DNA of 64,000 nt. Source: Alphaproteobacteria bacterium (lineage in GTDB: Bacteria; Pseudomonadota; Alphaproteobacteria; Rs-D84). The notes under the pieces were generated by a model that did no database searches, was not told the DNA's origin, and saw nothing but the letters and a program-made list of their open reading frames with translations. The position numbers and the translations under genes are program-made. Within the stretch, counting starts at the first letter, position 1. Each line of letters begins with the position of its first letter. The stretch covers positions 9,831 to 73,830 of the forward strand of contig SUUQ01000007.1 in the NCBI GenBank assembly GCA_015062445.1. Reading direction: 5' to 3'. This document shows, one piece after another, positions 5,698 to 63,549 of the stretch.

Positions 5698-8600
5698 ATG
5701 GCTTTGTTCAATAATAAAATTCAATCGTTTGATAATATTAACAATCGTCTGGTTGATGATTTGAAGGCGGAAATTAAAAAGCATTCCAAGTTATCCATAG
5801 CGGCAGCTTGTTTTTCAATATATGCATATCAAGATTTAAAGAAACAGTTGGAATCTGTTGATGAACTGCGCTTTATTTTTACGTCACCAACCTTCCTAGG
5901 GGCAAATAATAGTAAAGAACAGCGTGAATTCTATATACCACGTTTGGAACGTGAACAGAGTCTGTATGGGACAGAATTTGAATTACGTTTGCGCAACCAA
6001 ATGACCCAGAAAGCCATATCCAAGGAATGCGCCGAATGGATTAGAAACAAAGTTCAGTTTAAGTCAAACAAGACAAATCGTCTGATTCAGCCCTTTATTA
6101 ATATTGATGATAAATATACTTATTTGGGAATTAACGGCTTTACGACAACAGATTTGGGAACAGAAAAAGGCAATGCGCTGGCGATGTTTATAAATCGTCT
6201 TGAGGCAGAAAACAGCAAACAGTATCTTAATCTGTTTAATGAAATCTGGAATAATTCGGAACAGCTGGAAGACGTTAAGCAAAAGATTTTAGAGCATATC
6301 GAAACAATTTATGCAGAAAATGCCCCAGAATACATTTACATGGTCACCTTGTATAATATTTTCAAAGAATTTTTGAATGATATTTCAGATGACGTTTTGC
6401 CAAATGAGGCAACAGGATTTAAACAAAGTGAAATTTGGAACAAGTTGTACACATTCCAAAAAGACGCGGCACGTGACATTATACATAAACTGGAAAAGTT
6501 TAATGGGTGTATATTGGCTGACTCGGTTGGGTTGGGTAAAACGTTTACTGCGCTGGCGGTTATTAAATACTATGAATGTCGTAACAAGAGTGTCTTGGTG
6601 TTGTGCCCAAAGAAGTTACAAGATAACTGGACAACGTTCCGTGAAAATTATTTAAACAATCCTGTGGCCAAAGACAGATTGCGTTATGATGTTCTGTATC
6701 ATACAGACTTGTCTCGTGAACGTGGTTTATCTGGCAGTATAGATTTGGGTAAAATCAACTGGGGTAATTATGATTTGGTCGTAATTGATGAAAGCCATAA
6801 TTTCAGAAACGGTGGAAAAACGACCGTAGATGAAGATGGTATTGAATCTTACAATCGCTATAATCAGTTAATGGAAAAGGTTATCAAAGCCGGGGTTAAG
6901 ACCAAGGTTTTGATGTTATCTGCAACACCGGTGAATAATCGTTTTGTTGATTTGAAGTATCAGCTGGAATTGGCATACGAAGGCGCCGAAGATGAAATTA
7001 ACGACAAGCTGAATACTAAAAAAGGTTTAACAACGATATTCAATAACGCCCAGCGTGCATTTAATGATTGGAGTAAGTTGCCAGAAGAAGAACGTACAAC
7101 AGAAGCGCTGTTGGGGCGTTTGGATCAAGATTTCTTTGAAGTATTGGATTCTGTTACAATAGCACGCAGCCGCAAGCATATTGAAAAAAGTTATAATATG
7201 GCTGAAATCGGCAAGTTCCCAACCCGTCTGGACCCAGATAACAGATATCCTGCCATTACGTTGGATGAGTCATTGGGGCTAAATTATGATGATATCTTTT
7301 CTAAATTGGAACAGTTGTATCTGAGTGTTTATTCGCCTTCTAAGTTTATTTTTCCAAGCAAATTGGAAAAGTATGAAAAAAAGTATGGGAAAAAGGCAGG
7401 CAAGGGTATTTCGCTGACGGGACGTGAAATGGGGACCCGTAAATTGATGGCAATCAATTTGATGAAACGTTTGGAAAGTTCCTGGTATTCCTTTAATGAA
7501 ACCGCTAAATCGATTGCAACTAAGATAGACAGCGCAATATCTGCCATAGAACAATTTAAAAAAGCAAAATCAGCCCGTGGATTTAAGTTTAGCATCTTTG
7601 GTATTGCCGAGGACGAGGAAGATATTGATACAACCTATGGCGATTACAGTATCGATTTTAACGATATGGATTATGAAACCTGGCTGAAAGAACTGCAAAG
7701 CGACCAGGAAGTGTTCGCCGAAATTCTGCGTTTGTTCGGTCAGATGACCCCAGAACTTGATAATAAGTTGAATGAATTAAAGGCGATTATCAGACATAAA
7801 ATAGAAAATCCATTAAATGCAGACAATAAAAAGGTTTTGATATTTACCGCTTGGGCAGATACCGCACGATATTTGTATGACAACCTGTCTGAATATTTGC
7901 GTGAAGAATTTGGATTAAATACAGGTGTTGTCACGGGTGATATATCGACCAGTGATTCAACGATAAAACGTAATGGAGACAAGGGCAAGTTTGATTTTAA
8001 TGAATTGCTGACCATGTTCTCGCCAGTATCCAAAGATCGTGATAAGTTAAACAATATACCGTCTGGTGACATAGATGTTCTGATTGGTACGGACTGTATC
8101 AGCGAAGGTCAAAACCTGCAGGACTGTGATTATATGGTAAACTTTGATATCCATTGGAATCCGGTTCGTATTGTTCAGCGCTTTGGACGTATTGACCGTA
8201 TCGGCAGTCGTAACGACAAAATCCAAATGGTCAATTTCTGGCCAGAACGTGAATTGGATAAATATATCGACCTGACAAACCGTGTTCAAAACCGCATGGT
8301 TGGTGTTGCGGTTGCAGGGGCCGGTATAAACGTTATTGGTCAAGACCAGGAATTACAATATCGCAAGGCACAATTAGAAAAAATCCGTAAAGAAACCCCA
8401 GATTTAGAAGATATGAACACCGGGGTGAATATCATGGATTTGGGGCTGAATGAATTTAGGTTAGAGGTTGTAGATTATCGTAAATCGCATCCTGAAATAG
8501 AAACGGCGGCCCGTGGTCTGCACGCGGTTGTTGCAGCGACGCCAGATATGCCTGCTGGGACCATTTTTGTCCTGCGTAATGTGAATAATGGCGACAAGAT

Positions 8601-15917: not shown

Positions 15918-15993
15918 TGGTGCCGGTTGTCGGACTTGAACCAACGACCTACTGATTACAAATCAGCCGCTCTACCAGCTGAGCTAAACCGGC
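15918..15993 (-). tRNA. tRNA-Thr (TGT)
   Basis: Reverse complement GCCGGTTTAGCTCAGCTGGTAGAGCGGCTGATT-TGT-AATCAGTAGGTCGTTGGTTCAAGTCCGACAACCGGCACCA; 76 nt with encoded CCA. Confidence 0.97.
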
Positions 15994-16116: not shown

Positions 16117-16295
16117 TGACATAGCGGTTGCTGTGTTGGGCGTCGAAACCCGTTTAATGCGTTGTGTCCGCGGGGACAAAAAACACCTTCAACTGATTGG
16201 TTGGAGGGTGGTGATATACAAAAATAAGCCCGCTATTTTCAACGCATTATAGTTTCGAACCTCCAACCACCTGCCTGTGTACGGTGGTTTTTTGT
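16117..16295 (+). ncRNA. Structured attenuator/antisense leader, copy A (C4/CI-like layout)
   Basis: Two 5' hairpins; tcgaaac (16143-49) pairs with gtttcga (16252-58); taatgcgttg (16155-64) pairs with caacgcatta (16240-49); ggttggagg (16199-207) pairs with cctccaacc (16260-68); terminator aaccacc/ggtggtt plus U-tract. Confidence 0.7.
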
Positions 16296-16426: not shown

Positions 16427-17482
16427 ATGACAAAAGAAAAAGAAGTTGCAAAAAAACAAAACTATATGACATTTGAAGAAATGGCCAAGGTTTTTTTGAA
16501 AGAAAAAATTAACATAAGACAGGGAGAGCTTGGTAGTCTATATCACGATCTGGTTTACAAAAGAGAGTTACCAAGAAGTTATTGGTCCTATACATATTGT
16601 TCCGAGGAGGAGAAAATGCTTCTTGACCAGGTGTTTGGTGTCCATCAAGATTTGCAAAATCCAGATGCAAAAAAATTCTTGGAAAATCTTCAAATTATTA
16701 TTGGTTCCAGATTTGCTGTAAATCCATTTCGGGCAGAGATAGATTATATTATAGTCAAACCAGAACAAATGGCGGATGTGTTCTTGAAACTGGCTGATAC
16801 CGAGATAAAGGATGAAAAGATTAAGTATGATGCCCTGAAATATTTAACAGGCAGTAATGTTTTGAAAAAAAGAAAAGACCTGTGGGCAAAAATATTAAAA
16901 AATCCAAATTCGGTAACATACGATTATAAATTGGCAATAATGGCACTTGATAAAGCCGATCCAGATTTGAAAAAGATATATTCCGCAATGGAGAAAAAGG
17001 TAAAAGTAACAATTGTCAATGAAAGTGAAAACAGATTGCCAGATTTTGATAAATTGAACTATACCAAGGTGCACTTGCATGATGCGGCAAAGTATATTGA
17101 TGCAGATCTGGGGGCGCAGGTAGAGGCAATGTATTTTGGCAATGACGGTGCGGAATTGGAAGAATTCCTGGCCCAGGTTGAAAAGTCGTCCAGTCTGAAA
17201 ATTACAGAACTGACTGCCCAGGTTGAAGGGCTGAATAAGCAGCTGAAGACCACAGAAAACCAGCTGAAACAGACGGCGGGCGAACTGGAAAAGGCGCAGG
17301 CCGAAAATCAAAAGCTGGCCAATGCCAACGAAAAACAGGCAGATAAATTAAACATGGAAAAAAAGTACGTCAAGCAACTGTTGAATGCGGCCGAAGAGTT
17401 GCGTATCGGTATTGGCAGTCGTGGTATCAGAAATATGCGTAAAGTTATGAACTATGTCCAGCAGGCACAGCAAACTAGATAA
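16427..17482 (+). CDS. Hypothetical protein with C-terminal coiled coil
   Basis: 351-aa ORF; heptad-rich last third; followed by a terminator. Confidence 0.75.
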   Translation: MTKEKEVAKKQNYMTFEEMAKVFLKEKINIRQGELGSLYHDLVYKRELPRSYWSYTYCSEEEKMLLDQVFGVHQDLQNPDAKKFLENLQIIIGSRFAVNPFRAEIDYIIVKPEQMADVFLKLADTEIKDEKIKYDALKYLTGSNVLKKRKDLWAKILKNPNSVTYDYKLAIMALDKADPDLKKIYSAMEKKVKVTIVNESENRLPDFDKLNYTKVHLHDAAKYIDADLGAQVEAMYFGNDGAELEEFLAQVEKSSSLKITELTAQVEGLNKQLKTTENQLKQTAGELEKAQAENQKLANANEKQADKLNMEKKYVKQLLNAAEELRIGIGSRGIRNMRKVMNYVQQAQQTR

Positions 17483-27226: not shown

Positions 27227-27289
27227 CGTTATAGAACACCGGGCATTTGCCCGGTTGTGCTGATTTATATCTTGGGGATGAAAAAAGGG

Positions 27290-28930
27290 ATGAGAAACAC
27301 AAAATCAATATTGTTTTATTCGTTATTGGCGACATTGGTTCCATGTGTTGCGATGGCGGGTATCCGTGTTGGCAATCTGTCACGTTCGAATGCGGCGGGC
27401 TATCAACAGGTGAACCAGGCACGTTTTCAGGCGGACCAGGCCACCCAGGCGGCTGCAGAAACTGCGGCGGCTGCTGCGGTTCCCCAGGGGGGTGAAAATG
27501 GTGCATTGGTGGCCAGTTCACAGACGGAATCCGGTCAGATGTCACGTTGTTCAATGATTTATCCCAACGGTGAATTTTCCTGGTCCCGTCCCACGGTCGG
27601 GCATGGTATCGGCGGTGCGTCGACCTGTACTGCAGTTGTTGAAATGCGTGCGATTGGTGCGGGCGAAAACGGGGCGGATTTGGTTGTTGCCCGTGCGAAT
27701 TTGGCGGCTGGCGACAGTGTTCGTTGCAACATATCAGACTTTTCAGAAATGACCTGGCTGCCTGCTGCGGGTGAAATTGAATTTCCTGCGGATAACGAAC
27801 CGACCATGGATGATGTTATAACCACTATGAACCGTGAACAGAAACAAAATGCCGGTCTAAAGATTGCGGCGGGGGCCGTTATTGGTGGTCTGGGCGGCAA
27901 CATGGCGGGCAAGAATGAACCTGGCAAAGATGGTTTGCTGGGCGGTGGCAAGGCCAAAACCAACAGTACGATTATTGGCGCCCTGGGGGGTGCGGCTTTG
28001 ATGGCGGGCAATGCCTACACGGGCAAGGTTGCCGGTGATGTGATTTTATCGACTGGTGTGAATGCGGCGGCGGGTGCAGTTATGGGCAACATTGTTGCCA
28101 GTGGTGATTCTGTAATGCGGATTGAACCGTGCACGGTTGATGAGAAGGATACAACATGCCTGTGGGGCTTTGTTGAAAAGACAAAAGCATTGGAAAATGG
28201 CGAAGTCGCATATGTATCTGCCACAAATATAAATAATTTTCTTGTTTGTAAACGTGATGAATCAGATGAGGATCGTGAAATTTGTTCTGCGGCAAATCTG
28301 ACCCGTGCAGTTGTCGAAGAATATGAAAACGAAAAAAGCAAATCAGATAAACAACCCATGGAATTGTCTGATATGCTGCAAGAGAGCTTTGGCAAAGTTA
28401 CCAAGCGTTATTGCTATTCCGACAACAAAATGCAGGAAAGCAGCACCTGTGACAAAGATATGTATATCAAACTGAAATCTGCTGTCTATGTGACAAATCG
28501 TATTGCGGCGATGCTGGTTGGTGTTGCGGACAAAGGCAGTGGCTGGAAACGTGCTGATTGGTCTGATTTGAAACAGCGCTATTCTGGTGCACAGATTGTT
28601 GGTCGTGCTGGTTCTGGCACTGCGACAAATTTGCCGACCAAGCCCGACATAAATGATTTTCGTCCTGCATACCTTGATGCATCAGATGGCGGTGTTGTTG
28701 ACATTTCGAACAAGGCCCGTCTAAAAGGCACCTTGACCGGTGCCGGTGTTGGTGCGGGGATGGGTGCGTTTGTTGGATACCAGGGTGCCCAAAGTGACAT
28801 TGAAGAACGTTGGGTAACGGCGGTGCGTGAATACAAAGACAGTCTGGGCAAGGTTTATTGTGCAACAGGGACCCGATTCTTGTCCCAGTATAACGACACG
28901 ATAATAATTCCTGCGATGCCAGCAGAATAA
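27290..28930 (+). CDS. Secreted protein with glycine-zipper segments
   Basis: Signal peptide; AAGAVIGGLGG, IIGALGGAALMAG, GAGVGAGMGAFVG; many Cys. Confidence 0.7.
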   Translation: MRNTKSILFYSLLATLVPCVAMAGIRVGNLSRSNAAGYQQVNQARFQADQATQAAAETAAAAAVPQGGENGALVASSQTESGQMSRCSMIYPNGEFSWSRPTVGHGIGGASTCTAVVEMRAIGAGENGADLVVARANLAAGDSVRCNISDFSEMTWLPAAGEIEFPADNEPTMDDVITTMNREQKQNAGLKIAAGAVIGGLGGNMAGKNEPGKDGLLGGGKAKTNSTIIGALGGAALMAGNAYTGKVAGDVILSTGVNAAAGAVMGNIVASGDSVMRIEPCTVDEKDTTCLWGFVEKTKALENGEVAYVSATNINNFLVCKRDESDEDREICSAANLTRAVVEEYENEKSKSDKQPMELSDMLQESFGKVTKRYCYSDNKMQESSTCDKDMYIKLKSAVYVTNRIAAMLVGVADKGSGWKRADWSDLKQRYSGAQIVGRAGSGTATNLPTKPDINDFRPAYLDASDGGVVDISNKARLKGTLTGAGVGAGMGAFVGYQGAQSDIEERWVTAVREYKDSLGKVYCATGTRFLSQYNDTIIIPAMPAE

Positions 28931-28954
28931 AATGTCCCCCGATTGGGGGATTTT

Positions 28955-29173
28955 TTAATTTCGCCGTTTACACAAAATCATTGTTAACCCATTTGTCATA
29001 ATGCGTTCAACAATCTTTTCTGGCATCAGCATTTTACCATTTTCAATTCGTATCAAATCACGATGAGATACCCCCAGCATGTTTGCGCATTGACATCTTT
29101 TCAGGTTCAACGTATTGCGTGCATGTCGCAGGTAATGACCAAAGTATTTGGTGTCTACTAAAACAACTGCCAT
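28955..29173 (-). CDS. XRE/Cro-like helix-turn-helix protein, copy 1 (72 aa)
   Basis: FGHYLRHARNTLNLKRCQCANMLGVSHRDLIRIENGK; SD GGAGG. Confidence 0.85.
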   Translation of the reverse strand: MAVVLVDTKYFGHYLRHARNTLNLKRCQCANMLGVSHRDLIRIENGKMLMPEKIVERIMTNGLTMILCKRRN

Positions 29174-29194
29174 TTTTATCCTCCATGTTTTTTG

Positions 29195-29372
29195 ATTAAC
29201 AAAAAACCGCCAATGATAAACAAAAGCGGTTGGAGGTTAAAGACTATTCGAATAGATAGTGCTGTTTATTTATATATATCACAGCCCCCCAACCAATGTT
29301 GGAGATAATGTTTATGTCATCCCTGACAATTCGAACGGGTCTTTACACCCCACACCGTTTTTTTCAGTGCCA
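29195..29372 (-). ncRNA. Structured attenuator/antisense leader, copy B
   Basis: On the minus strand taaagac pairs with gtcttta, ttcgaat with attcgaa, ggttggggg with cctccaacc; terminator aaccgc/gcggtt plus U-tract just before the HTH SD. Confidence 0.72.
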
Positions 29373-29679
29373 ACAAATTATACCTGATACTTTTCTTAGA
29401 TTCAAATAAATTATTCATTGCTGTATTTATTTTCAAAAAATCCCCCGATTGGGGGATTTTTTTATTTCGCCGTTTACATAAAATCATTGTTAACCCATTT
29501 GTCATAATGCGTTCAACAATCTTTTCCGGCATCAGCATTTTACCGTTTTCAATTCGTATCAAATCACGATGAGACACCCCCAGCATGTTTGCACATTGGC
29601 ATCTTTTCAGGTTCAAAGTATTGCGTGCATGTCGCAGGTAATGACCAAAGTATTTGGTGTCTACTAAAACAACTGCCAT
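29317..29679 (-). CDS. XRE/Cro-like HTH protein, copy 2; stop codon lost, 48-aa read-through extension
   Basis: First 72 aa identical to copy 1; TAA replaced by AAA. Confidence 0.8.
   Translation of the reverse strand: MAVVLVDTKYFGHYLRHARNTLNLKRCQCANMLGVSHRDLIRIENGKMLMPEKIVERIMTNGLTMILCKRRNKKIPQSGDFLKINTAMNNLFESKKSIRYNLLALKKTVWGVKTRSNCQG
29377..29405 (-). promoter_or_regulatory. Sigma70 promoter of leader B
   Basis: TTGAAT, 17 bp, TATAAT. Confidence 0.8.
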
Positions 29680-29699
29680 TTTTATCCTCCATGTTTTTT

Positions 29700-29866
29700 G
29701 ATTAACAAAAAACCGCCAATGATAAACAAAAGCGGTTGGAGGTTAAAGACTACAAGTAAGAGTAGTGTTGCTTATTCAACATATTCACAACCCTCCAACC
29801 ATCCTGGTCGGAGAAATTTATACTTACTTTCGGGTCTTTACACCCCACACCGTTTTTTCAGTGCCA
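29700..29866 (-). ncRNA. Structured attenuator/antisense leader, copy C
   Basis: On the minus strand taaagac pairs with gtcttta, aagtaag with cttactt, ggttggagg with cctccaacc; same terminator as copy B. Confidence 0.72.
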
Positions 29867-29870
29867 ACAA

Positions 29871-29899
29871 ATTATACCTGACACTTTTCTTAGATTCAA
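29871..29899 (-). promoter_or_regulatory. Sigma70 promoter of leader C
   Basis: TTGAAT, 17 bp, TATAAT. Confidence 0.8.
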
Positions 29900-29954
29900 A
29901 TAAATTATTCATCGCTGTATTTATTTTCAAAAAATCCCCCAGACGGGGGATTTT

Positions 29955-31316
29955 TTAACCGTTTACAATTTCCAGTATTCTGTTTTTTACATCTGAAATT
30001 GCGATTCTTTCTTGCTCCATCGTATCACGGTGCCGCAGGGTTACGGTATTATCTTCCATTGTTTGATGGTCGACAGTGATACATACCGGTGTACCGATTT
30101 CATCATGTCTGCGATAGTTTTTACCGATATTTCCCGAATTTTCCAGTTCAATTCGTCCGATACCCAATTTACGCAGGTCGCCCACAATACCGTTTGAAAT
30201 TTCCAACAGTTCTGGCACGTTTCGGGCCAGTGGTATAACTGCGGCCTTGACCGGTGACAACTGTGGTTTCAGTTTTAACACCGTACGTGATTTTCCATCC
30301 CCCAGGTCTTCTTCCTCATACGCCTCTATCATGACTGCCAGCATGGCACGATTGACCCCCATTGCAGTTTCGATAACGTACGGGATAAAGTTTTCACCAC
30401 TTTGTGGGTCAGAATATGACAGTTTTGTTGTACTGTCTTTATTTTCCAGAACGTTTGCATTGATTTTGAAATCTTTTTGTCCCTTGGTATGCGACCCCAG
30501 GTCAAAGTCCTGGCGGTTATGAATACCTTCGACTTCGTCAAAACCATCTGGGAATGCATATTCGATGTCCACTGCGGCCTTGGCATAGTGCGCCAATTTT
30601 TCATGTGGCATAAAGCGTAATTTGTCGGCTGGTATCCCCAGAACATCAATCCACCATGCCATACGTTGTTCCATCCACATCTGGTGGAATTTTTCGTCAT
30701 CGGCGGGGTTAACAAAGTACTGCATTTCTGCCTGTTCAAATTCCCGCATACGGAACACAAATCCACGTGGCGAAATTTCGTTACGGAATGCCTTGCCGAT
30801 TTGTGCGATACCGAACGGCAGTTTATGTGGTTTTGCATCCAACACGTTTTTAAAGTTCGTATATGTTGTTGTTGCGGTTTCTGGTCGCAGATATGCATTA
30901 ATTGCCCCATCTGCAGTTGCCCCGATGGACAGTCCCATCATCAATTGGTACGCACGTGGTTCTGTGATGTCTGTGCTGCCACAGTTATCACATTTTGTTT
31001 GGTCACGCATTTTATCCTGACGCATACGTGCCCCACATTTTTTACATTCGACCAGTGGGTCTGAAAAACCAGCTTCGTGTCCAGAATATTTCCACAACAG
31101 GCGGTTTGAAATCAGTGCCGCATCCAGTCCTTCGATATCATCACGTGAATAAATCATGGCATTCCACCATGCGTTTCGGATATTTTTCATCAGTTCCACG
31201 CCATACGGTCCAAAGTCGTATGCGCCACCCAATCCGCCGTAAATTTCAGAACCTGTGAAAATAAATCCGCGTCTTTTACAAAGTGCGACAATATCATTAA
31301 CTGTTTTTGCTGGCAT
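29955..31316 (-). CDS. glyQS: Glycine--tRNA ligase, homodimeric (alpha2) type
   Basis: LCKRRGFIF.GSEIYGG, YLRPETA, QIGKAFRNEI.PR, FRMREFEQ and GNIGKNYRRHDEIGTP motifs. Confidence 0.95.
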   Translation of the reverse strand: MPAKTVNDIVALCKRRGFIFTGSEIYGGLGGAYDFGPYGVELMKNIRNAWWNAMIYSRDDIEGLDAALISNRLLWKYSGHEAGFSDPLVECKKCGARMRQDKMRDQTKCDNCGSTDITEPRAYQLMMGLSIGATADGAINAYLRPETATTTYTNFKNVLDAKPHKLPFGIAQIGKAFRNEISPRGFVFRMREFEQAEMQYFVNPADDEKFHQMWMEQRMAWWIDVLGIPADKLRFMPHEKLAHYAKAAVDIEYAFPDGFDEVEGIHNRQDFDLGSHTKGQKDFKINANVLENKDSTTKLSYSDPQSGENFIPYVIETAMGVNRAMLAVMIEAYEEEDLGDGKSRTVLKLKPQLSPVKAAVIPLARNVPELLEISNGIVGDLRKLGIGRIELENSGNIGKNYRRHDEIGTPVCITVDHQTMEDNTVTLRHRDTMEQERIAISDVKNRILEIVNG

Positions 31317-62414: not shown

Positions 62415-63254
62415 ATGTGCAAAAAGAAAACAGAAAACAAATCGGATAAGAAAATCGCCCTGATTGCGGGTGCATTGGATTTGCCGTTTTTCACACGTGA
62501 TGCACTGCGGCGTGCGGGCTGGGACGTGTTTGTGATTGGGTTGCGTGGGTTCGTAGATATGCGTCTGAATCCTGACATGGTAATTCGCCTGGGGGGTGGT
62601 GGTCGTGCGGCCCGTGCGGTTCGGCGTCGTGGGATACGTAAATTGGTATTTGTTGGTGCCCTGGGGCATCCGAATTTATCTGACGTTCGGCCTGATTTTT
62701 GGTCGTTGCGAATATTGCTGAAATTATTAAGACATCAACGGGGGTATGATTCAATGGCAGTTGCGTTAAATAAAGTTCTTGAAGGGCAGGGGTTTGAAAT
62801 TGTTGCGGCCCAGGATTTGGCGCCAGAATTGACGTTTGAAACAGCGGGGGTTCAGACACGGGCCCAGCCCAGCAAATCTGACACCAAGAATATTGAACGT
62901 GCCATAGATGTTTCGCACACCATTGGCACTGCGGACATTGGTGCATCGGTTGTTGTTGATTCCCAGGTAATTGCGGTCGAGGCGGCCGAAGGCACAGCCC
63001 GCATGCTGGAACGTGTTGTATCTATGCGCACATCGAAACGTCGTCCCAGCGGTGTTTTTGCCAAGATGACCAAACCCGGCCAGGATTTACGCATAGATAT
63101 CCCTGCGATTGGTGTTGATACAGTAAATGCGGTTGCAGATGCCAAATTGCGTGGGATTGTTGTAAATACGAAAACGTGTTTTGTTGTAAACAAACCTGCG
63201 GTTATTTCTGCTGCGAATGAACGCGGCATATTTATCCTGGCATTGGACGAATAA
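62415..63254 (+). CDS. lpxI: UDP-2,3-diacylglucosamine pyrophosphatase LpxI
   Basis: IALIAG..DLP, DIGASVVV, VEAAEGT, KMTKPGQDLRIDIPAIG motifs. Confidence 0.9.
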   Translation: MCKKKTENKSDKKIALIAGALDLPFFTRDALRRAGWDVFVIGLRGFVDMRLNPDMVIRLGGGGRAARAVRRRGIRKLVFVGALGHPNLSDVRPDFWSLRILLKLLRHQRGYDSMAVALNKVLEGQGFEIVAAQDLAPELTFETAGVQTRAQPSKSDTKNIERAIDVSHTIGTADIGASVVVDSQVIAVEAAEGTARMLERVVSMRTSKRRPSGVFAKMTKPGQDLRIDIPAIGVDTVNAVADAKLRGIVVNTKTCFVVNKPAVISAANERGIFILALDE

Positions 63255-63278
63255 AAAATCCCCCGATTGGGGGATTTT
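63253..63278. terminator. Bidirectional terminator of the GATT-loop family
   Basis: aaaaaatccccc-gatt-gggggatttt, same core as 28935 and 29441. Confidence 0.8.
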
Positions 63279-63279
63279 A

Positions 63280-63549
63280 TTATTTTGCGTCTGTTTCTTC
63301 TGGGATTACGGAAACAGTTTTACGGTCGCCGTTACCCTTTTTGAACTTCACAATACCGGCAATTTTTGCAAATATTGTGTGGTCTTTACCCATACCAACA
63401 TTCAGACCAGGGTGTACAGATGTACCACGTTGGCGAATGATGATGTTTCCTGGGATAACGCGGCTGCCGCCGGCTTTTTTAACACCTAATCTGCGTCCTG
63501 CCGAGTCGCGTCCATTGGTTGATGCGGAACCCGCTTTCTTATGTGCCAT
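63280..63549 (-). CDS. rpmA: 50S ribosomal protein L27
   Basis: [24 protein letters not shown]; IIIRQRGT. Confidence 0.97.

Follow-up and report, generated by a model that had tools for sequence, protein, structure and literature searches.

Terminating riboswitches and attenuator leaders, such as the SAM-I and purine OFF riboswitches and tandem riboswitches, lie in the 5' untranslated region (UTR) on the strand of their gene and form a multi-helix junction. The 3' strand of the closing stem is shared with an antiterminator and an intrinsic terminator stands directly behind it; the stems covary, junction and loop nucleotides are conserved, a long-range tertiary pair is found and tandem copies occur occasionally. 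We describe here a leader RNA that is alike in all these respects. It was found in a 64-kb window (the whole stretch analysed, 64,000 nucleotides of contig SUUQ01000007.1 from an Alphaproteobacteria bacterium), where two tandem units downstream of glyQS each combine such a leader with the gene of a small helix-turn-helix (HTH) regulator of the Xre type. The layout matches that of transcriptional OFF riboswitches and protein-controlled attenuators, and the predicted anatomy of the leader is like that of a riboswitch-type attenuator. Unlike the described systems, this leader has no known ligand and matches no Rfam 15 family. The genes behind it mostly encode tiny Xre regulators and some secreted proteins, not metabolic or transport functions, and each genome holds several paralogous copies whose cores recombine.

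A second arrangement, the attenuation of repR in plasmid pIP501, combines an antisense RNA (RNAIII) with the small HTH repressor CopR. There, too, a leader with an intrinsic terminator stands beside a small HTH gene and two layers of control act on one short locus. In contrast to pIP501, no antisense plus-strand promoter was found at the window units, the HTH gene is the regulated gene and not an upstream co-regulator, and the locus is chromosomal, in a housekeeping context and with no replication gene.

We consider it rather probable that each unit is a stand-alone module made of an RNA switch and an Xre regulator, and that the tandem results from recombination among paralogues.

Layout of the units and fold of the leader

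The two units are direct repeats (window 28929-29956) with start-to-start distances of 506 and 494 bp. They correspond to two repeat families, D1 (300 nt, 97% identity, 506-nt spacing) and D2 (104 nt, 94% identity, 494-nt spacing). Three perfect 12+12 hairpins of the C5-N4-G5 type, AAAAAATCCCCC-N4-GGGGGATTTTTT, delimit both units. Read on the minus strand, each unit comprises a sigma-70 promoter, a leader of ~165-175 nt with an intrinsic terminator, a Shine-Dalgarno (SD) sequence, an Xre-type HTH gene and a hairpin terminator. The initial annotation had proposed two tandem, self-contained modules between three such hairpins, and this description holds.

29955-31316, minus strand: glyQS
29929-29956: hairpin T3, AAAAAATCCCCC GUCU GGGGGAUUUUUU, bidirectional terminator right behind the glyQS stop
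29871-29899, minus strand: promoter of unit A, TTGAAT-17-TATAAT
29708-29869, minus strand: leader RNA A, subtype I (model R1, 83.8 bits, E 7e-20)
29461-29679, minus strand: HTH gene A, 72 Xre-type codons, SD GGAGGA at 29685-29690, stop lost
29435-29462: hairpin T2 between the units, inside the extended open reading frame (ORF) of gene A
29377-29405, minus strand: promoter of unit B, TTGAAT-17-TATAAT
29202-29375, minus strand: leader RNA B, subtype II, with an extra hairpin P2a at 29316-29327 (model R1, 84.7 bits, E 4e-20)
28955-29173, minus strand: HTH gene B, 72 residues plus stop, protein identical to that of gene A
28929-28956: hairpin T1, terminator common to unit B and the convergent gene
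27257-28930, plus strand: convergent gene of 557 residues

The minus strand is the functional one because the promoter TTGAAT-17-TATAAT lies there and because many G.U pairs of the fold become C.A on the plus strand. An antisense RNA read from the plus strand was rejected, as no good plus-strand promoter was found and the G.U pairs fit the minus strand only. The promoter stands ~7 nt upstream of the leader fold and its TATAAT is kept in all copies of the module from Ca. Enterousia. In both units the -35 box is overlapped by an inverted repeat, AAATAAAT-N13-ATTTATTT (29900-29930 and 29406-29435, minus strand), a candidate operator for the HTH protein.

Single-sequence folds of leaders A and B gave z-scores of -4.5 and -4.9, and 0/200 shuffled sequences folded as stably. 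In the closed fold, a 5' hairpin (P0) precedes a long closing stem composed of P1, P1' and P2, which encloses an inner junction. The intrinsic terminator (AACCGC-loop-GCGGUUUUUU) stands directly behind it, followed by GGAGGA, ATG and the HTH gene. In the window, the closing stem consists of P1 GGGGU:ACCUC (core GGGG:CCUC), P1' UAAAGAC:GUCUUUA (segments A/A') and P2 (segments B/B'), while the junction holds P3 (CUCCRAC:GUUGGRG), P4 with a conserved AU-rich loop and sometimes, as in unit B, P2a. The elements of both leaders, all on the minus strand, are placed as follows.

29847-29865: leader A, P0
29842-29846: leader A, 5' strand of P1, GGGGU
29834-29840 and 29744-29750: leader A, segments A and A'
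29823-29829 and 29754-29760: leader A, segments B and B' (AAGUAAG/CUUACUU)
29806-29814: leader A, 5' strand of P3
29792-29800: leader A, GGUUGGAGG
29767-29791: leader A, P4 hairpin
29707-29742: switch region A, where CCUCCAACC at 29734-29742 overlaps the terminator AACCGC...GCGGUUUUUU at 29707-29737
29339-29345 and 29238-29244: leader B, segments A and A'
29329-29336 and 29246-29253: leader B, segments B and B' (GUUCGAAU/AUUCGAAU)
29286-29294: leader B, GGUUGGGGG
29261-29285: leader B, P4
29228-29236: leader B, CCUCCAACC
29201-29231: leader B, terminator
Roughly 29347 and 29260: long-range Y:R pair in unit B (columns 46 and 374 of alignment A5)

A covariance model (R1) was built from 7 near-gapless sequences with a hand-written structure. 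R1 found 80 leader copies, 66 of them distinct, in the 566 kb searched. In the alignment fitted to R1, 94.8% of the cells form standard pairs and 26/37 pairs are changed on both sides. The covariation score of this alignment was 0.444, compared with 0.144 after column shuffling (0/500 shuffles reached the observed score) and at most 0.067 when partners were slid by 1-3 columns. A sequence-anchor script that is independent of the model recovered at least 12 variants of A/A' and more than 30 of B/B', all of them complementary, with B/B' spanning 5-13 bp. P0, P1', P2, P4 and the terminator all covary; hairpin P5 (ACUAY/RUAGU) is compatible with the alignment but nearly invariant.

A mutual-information scan revealed one extra covarying pair outside the helices, between the Y of GGGG-Y-GUAA and the R of C-R-CUAU (U-A in 37 sequences, C-G in 12, U.G in 3 and other combinations in 2), the C-G form being present in several sequence groups. 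This pair looks like a tertiary contact of a junction strand with the P1/P1' bulge and suggests a compact tertiary fold. Together, these results demonstrate that the leaders form a family with one fold, a conserved structured domain with covariation as is characteristic of riboswitches.

Predicted switch between terminator and antiterminator

RNAalifold favoured an alternative helix of 9 bp between GGUUGGRGG and CCUCCAACC. Both strands are invariant in nearly all copies and complementary at 9/9 positions, while two copies alter both strands and keep the pairing (L077:1977-2147, GGCUGGAGG/CCUCCAGCC; L046:410-562, GGUUGGAGA/UCUCCAACC). The helix uses the 3' strand of P3 and covers the 3' strand of P1 together with the first four bases of the terminator stem, so that in unit A CCUCCAACC can pair either with the GGGG of P1 or with GGUUGGAGG. 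Because it overlaps both the P1 3' strand and the terminator 5' strand, this pairing excludes the closed fold plus terminator. Forcing the antiterminator helix costs 9.3 kcal/mol on average relative to the minimum-free-energy structure; the terminated state is therefore the predicted thermodynamic default. The leader thus presents mutually exclusive terminator and antiterminator structures, with support that is limited in that the helix is otherwise invariant, and it occupies the 5' UTR of the gene that it would control, on the same strand.

From these modelled folds we infer antitermination and a default-off state. The closed fold being the more stable, most transcripts would stop before the HTH gene. 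Pairing of GGUUGGRGG with CCUCCAACC would act as an antiterminator and let transcription reach the HTH gene, and the choice between the folds would fall to some signal, for which a small molecule, the HTH protein or some further factor may be considered.

Two other explanations of the conserved sequences were tried. A T-box, considered for UGGA/ACCGCC, was rejected as no match to RF00230 was obtained at E up to 10, the architecture is wrong and the unit lies downstream of glyQS. A mini-ORF (MVGGL-stop) across GGUUGGRGG was dropped since L010 and the wider family lack its start codon; it was ascribed to constraints on the RNA.

Expression was evaluated in a metatranscriptome (X25) with contigs over the leader core of a close relative. 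The leader of L034 (7413-7574) had a depth of 11-78 and the HTH body (7197-7358) a depth of 0-5. This excess is consistent with frequent termination, or with a leader of much greater stability. It also speaks for a different role, in which the ~170-nt RNA would be mainly a trans-acting small RNA (sRNA), produced in large amounts through termination at its own terminator and only controlled or accompanied by the HTH protein. Other mRNAs would then be the targets of its CCUCC (anti-Shine-Dalgarno-like), its GGAGG or the conserved AU-rich loop of P4, or these segments would titrate a protein. Alphaproteobacteria are known to have sRNAs with anti-SD motifs in multiple, tandem copies (AbcR1/2 and the alpha-r14 'cuckoo' RNAs), and such a role would accommodate the presence of several copies per genome, the RNA-only tandems, and a P4 loop whose sequence is conserved though the HTH proteins are ~50-68% identical across species. 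We find it unlikely nonetheless: CCUCC and GGAGG are both base-paired in the closed fold, most copies are followed by a same-strand gene with an SD sequence at a fixed short distance, the overlap of terminator and antiterminator is typical of control in cis, and no Rfam sRNA family matches.

Several points weigh against the proposed switch. The evidence for the antiterminator consists of invariance and two compensatory variants. The covariation counts come from an alignment fitted to R1, which favours the structure, and P1 varies on one side only, with no both-sided change. The RNA evidence is assembler k-mer depth on short contigs, carries no strand and stems partly from related species, and action in trans is also conceivable for a terminated leader that builds up. 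The leader has no known ligand or binding factor, and the downstream genes, being regulators and secreted proteins, suggest neither a metabolite nor a candidate ligand.

Reduced-genome uncultured gut lineages have been described (PMC12306168). A more specific proposal is that the leader represents a new riboswitch class or a new protein-sensing aptamer which, in partner-dependent gut Alphaproteobacteria with reduced genomes, would gate small Xre regulators as well as some secreted proteins. Subtypes I, II and III, which recombine, would then respond to different cues, and several sensors of a single genome, sometimes in tandem, would feed one regulator as a signal-integrating OR gate. We hold this proposal tentatively and regard it as somewhat doubtful.

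The B/B' segments as helix P2

The initial annotation had read B/B' as a variable specificity address and the array as a bank of immunity specificities that would silence matching leaders of incoming phages or elements, in the manner of c4/CI-type antisense RNAs. The c4 antisense RNA of phages P1/P7 and the CI RNA of satellite phage P4 are, like our leader, small structured RNAs made from the leader of the operon that they control. They too carry short complementary segments (a/b) and act by premature termination or blocked translation. Several observations would agree with an address: B/B' differs between the units while the flanks are ~97% identical, B' lies in a hairpin loop of the alternative fold (ACUAY-B'-RUAGU), leader cores are shuffled relative to HTH alleles, and different B types are present within each sampled genome.

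The spacer that holds these segments had been described as fully diverged with B/B' pairing kept. The pairing is indeed kept, and the changes in B/B' are compensatory as announced, but the divergence is not complete, since the stretch that begins with GGUUGGRGG, includes the next hairpin and ends at CUA is identical at 31/39 positions. Among the helices B/B' varies most, with lengths of 5-13 bp; the partner of B lies in the same molecule and the helix closes the conserved fold; P0, P1' and P4 covary likewise. Unlike the segments of c4/CI RNAs, those of the leader pair within one fold and no second set of target sites was found. Nor are the B types private to a species: in the Enterousia set there are only ~6, each common to several species within a leader subtype (AAGUAAG in the window, L017, L019 and L022; UUAACAG in L026, L028, L029 and L036; UACAGAUA in L013, L020, L025, L027 and L034).

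In addition, neither the leader nor its conserved boxes were matched in 2.9 million viral contigs scanned with both motif patterns, or in 50,697 phage records and 72,556 plasmids searched by blastn with leader B, and with words of seven bases a statistical test for trans targets was not possible. The leader has no phage context and no Rfam c4 match, the modules stand among housekeeping genes, and a c4/CI-type immunity RNA, which would be recognised by a family match and separate target sites, was accordingly rejected. These data identify B/B' as helix P2 within a conserved fold of several helices, not as a special address; an immunity bank, with neither copy nor target in the phage, plasmid and viral collections, is very improbable.

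Regulator genes, distribution and recombination

ORFs A and B encode the same 72 residues and differ at 7 positions, all third-codon and synonymous, as the initial annotation had stated. Since ~22% of single changes are synonymous, the chance of 7/7 is ~2.5e-5, and the HTH protein is, judging from these codons, under purifying selection, which had likewise been proposed. An eighth difference (AAT TAA to AAT AAA) deletes the stop in the glyQS-proximal copy and opens a 120-residue ORF (29679-29317, minus strand) that passes through hairpin T2 into the next leader. Its product is recorded on 8 contigs, and the loss is polymorphic, the stop being retained on contig L008. The stop-less gene A would yield either a non-stop mRNA, if T2 terminates, or ribosomes that enter leader B up to the P2a hairpin; such ribosomes would unwind the 5' half of that leader, which could promote read-through at this point.

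The window HTH matched Pfam HTH_31 (E 1e-5; 26.1 bits, below the curated cut-off of 27) and HTH_19, as well as Xre-type families of NCBIfam and PHROGs, and a profile of the HTH family matched Xre-type domains of the PDB (8tac DBP48, E 5e-8; PezA, 8e-5). Besides these matches, a length of ~72 residues is typical of Cro-like proteins. Unlike Xre or Cro/C1 proteins, the window HTH carries LVDxKYFG as a conserved N-terminal motif and ends in a basic tail (KRRK/N), and no partner toxin or phage genes lie beside it. A type II toxin-antitoxin system was rejected, each HTH gene being monocistronic between leader and terminator with no conserved second or partner ORF. The family is very small, with 4 clusters in a word-based search of 5.8 billion proteins and no match in a protein-pattern scan of genome contigs.

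The leader is more widely distributed. In the relatives L010-L013 the leader recurs with B/B' pairs that are new and again compensating. The pattern GGTGTGGGGYGTAA-N(75-105)-TTAACCTCCAACCGC gave 20 loci in metagenome-assembled genomes (MAGs) of Ca. Enterousia and 'Alphaproteobacteria bacterium' from ruminant and other guts, 2-3 per MAG on different contigs. Wherever the contig was long enough, a 71-76-residue HTH paralogue followed the leader; in L019 the HTH gene copy is disrupted. The neighbours of the modules are unrelated housekeeping genes (ruvC, ssb/rho, gyrB, metG, rpsF, obg). In metagenome contigs the gapped motif pattern gave no match, while the ungapped pattern TAGNNNTTAACCTCCAACCGC gave 51 loci, 43/51 with GGTTGGRGG upstream. 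The 5' part of the leader and the downstream genes are more diverse there than in the MAG set. Among the genes are members of several unrelated families of small HTHs, others for signal-peptide proteins or lipoproteins and one for a 689-residue helicase-like protein. Among the divergent small downstream proteins, 8/9 match Pfam HTH models, and the named neighbours of these contigs are from MAGs of Alphaproteobacteria or Pseudomonadota.

Most copies with enough downstream sequence are followed, ~40-55 nt past CCUCCAACC, by a same-strand ORF with an SD sequence, and the ORFs that were read mostly encode small Xre HTHs, which demonstrates the arrangement in cis. One exception is a third copy in the window, whose downstream ORF starts ~160 nt past CCUCCAACC.

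16117-16293, plus strand: third leader copy of the class (R1 match at 16154-16292, 27.1 bits, E 1e-4)
16427-17482, plus strand: 351-residue coiled-coil ORF behind it
15918-15993: tRNA-Thr, divergent from the third copy

In this copy, A/A' is UCGAAAC/GUUUCGA and B/B' has 10 bp; the ORF is not an HTH gene and its start codon lies ~130 nt from the terminator. Two loci carry RNA-only tandems, in which two full copies 35 nt (L059:6037-6418) and 74 nt (L046:410-804) apart, with no ORF between them, stand ahead of one gene. Tandem riboswitches are arranged likewise, as back-to-back RNA copies ahead of one gene. Rfam 15 gave no match at E up to 10 on the locus and none at gathering score on 14 related loci, where only weak terminator-like matches appeared, and a literature search found no published description of the class. 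The leader class is thus widespread in gut Alphaproteobacteria and absent from Rfam 15.

The A-to-B junction was observed on L003, L004/L015, L006, L007 and L016, from separate sample records. The tandem is not a chimera of two strains. Nor is it a fresh duplication, as the initial annotation had held; indeed the two leader cores belong to distinct subtypes that are found in other species too. The copy-number runs are Logan contigs, fragmented and too broken to prove copy number. On single-unit contigs, an A leader precedes an HTH gene with all B-type single-nucleotide polymorphisms (SNPs; L001, L002) or with a mid-gene switch from A to B (L005), the expected products of unequal crossing-over, although assembler collapse could explain them in part. 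In run X8, the A core had depth 0 and the B core was present, one contig joined 29462 to 29924 and another ran from A-type HTH sequence into a B-type B', which suggests a B-only arrangement. In contig L014 (2323-2583), a deletion has joined codon 46 of HTH gene A to the promoter region of B, leaving an 86-residue ORF.

In relatives with GlyQS 95-96% identical (L090/L091 and L088/L089, 3862-3894), the site is empty and one bidirectional hairpin lies between glyQS and the convergent gene, which in L090/L091 is the 557-residue orthologue. The glyQS site therefore occurs with 0, 1 or 2 units, and the variable copy number that had been anticipated is borne out. In a more distant relative (89% identical GlyQS; L094/L095:4074-6362), genes for a phage head-tail connector and terminase come right after glyQS; insertions may have a hot spot in this intergenic region.

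Empty and filled glyQS sites differ by the unit plus a hairpin. The initial annotation had suggested that such cassettes use the hairpin as an insertion site. If the unit were a small element of this kind, mobile or selfish and spreading to terminator hairpins, this would be compatible with the functional readings and account for the empty sites and for modules at many unrelated housekeeping positions. Nearly every Enterousia module ends in the C5-N4-G5 hairpin type and the empty site keeps one, so that filled sites are flanked by a hairpin on each side. Furthermore, L022 is flanked by ~100-nt direct repeats and the L013 contig closes on itself. The window, however, holds four C5-N4-G5 hairpins, the last of them away from any unit.

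63246-63277: fourth hairpin, loop GAUU, between the convergent lpxI-like gene (62415-63254) and rpmA (63280-63549)

This hairpin serves the lineage as a generic bidirectional terminator. A role as an insertion site would be possible, though unproven; the pair at a filled site is compatible with insertion beside the hairpin or recombination through it and proves neither. No recombinase or transposase stood out among the large ORFs beside modules, for which no family search was made, and no target-site duplication was noticed in passing, none having been specifically looked for. Some sites are occupied in two species, which resembles inheritance (L017/L024, L023/L033), and ordinary homologous recombination between repeats accounts for the chimeric HTH alleles and for the states with one and two units. 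A mobile cassette therefore appears improbable to us.

Some flanks are repetitive. In L013 (878 bp) the first and last 55 nt are identical, indicating a tandem array of 823-bp units or a small circle; each 823-bp unit comprises the module, hairpins and GTGGTTAGTG repeats. Runs of GTGGTTAGTG-like repeats directly after the hairpin are also seen in L020, L022 (both flanks), L032, L034 and L035 and are absent from the window. The ~100 nt of L022 are repeated on both sides of the module.

The shuffling of modules is real. The same site carries different leader subtypes in two species, with the same or different HTH clades (L017 vs L024, L023 vs L033), in MAG CALARG one and the same HTH protein is encoded three times, each time behind another leader subtype (L022, L031, L032), and in the species of the window both leader cores occur with both sets of HTH SNPs. 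These data demonstrate dynamic copy number and recombination, and the combination of one HTH with different leaders is a recurring state, maintained or regenerated by recombination. The tandem pair consists of two old leader subtypes (I and II) ahead of near-identical HTH genes, and probably arose via recombination among paralogous modules, in which the flanks and HTH genes were homogenised.

Compensatory changes in a variable segment between conserved flanks can thus simply be what a covarying helix normally leaves, with no specificity code involved. Should the leader prove a genuine switch, it would add a well-supported class of structured RNA whose regulon, unusually, consists almost exclusively of tiny Xre regulators, in a gut lineage that is uncultured and has reduced genomes. 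Its 66 distinct natural variants, clear on/off helices and tertiary pair offer a direct starting point for ligand or protein screening. The family is also a clean natural case of modular evolution, in which leader cores, regulator genes and copy number (0, 1, 2) are reshuffled while the fold is kept.

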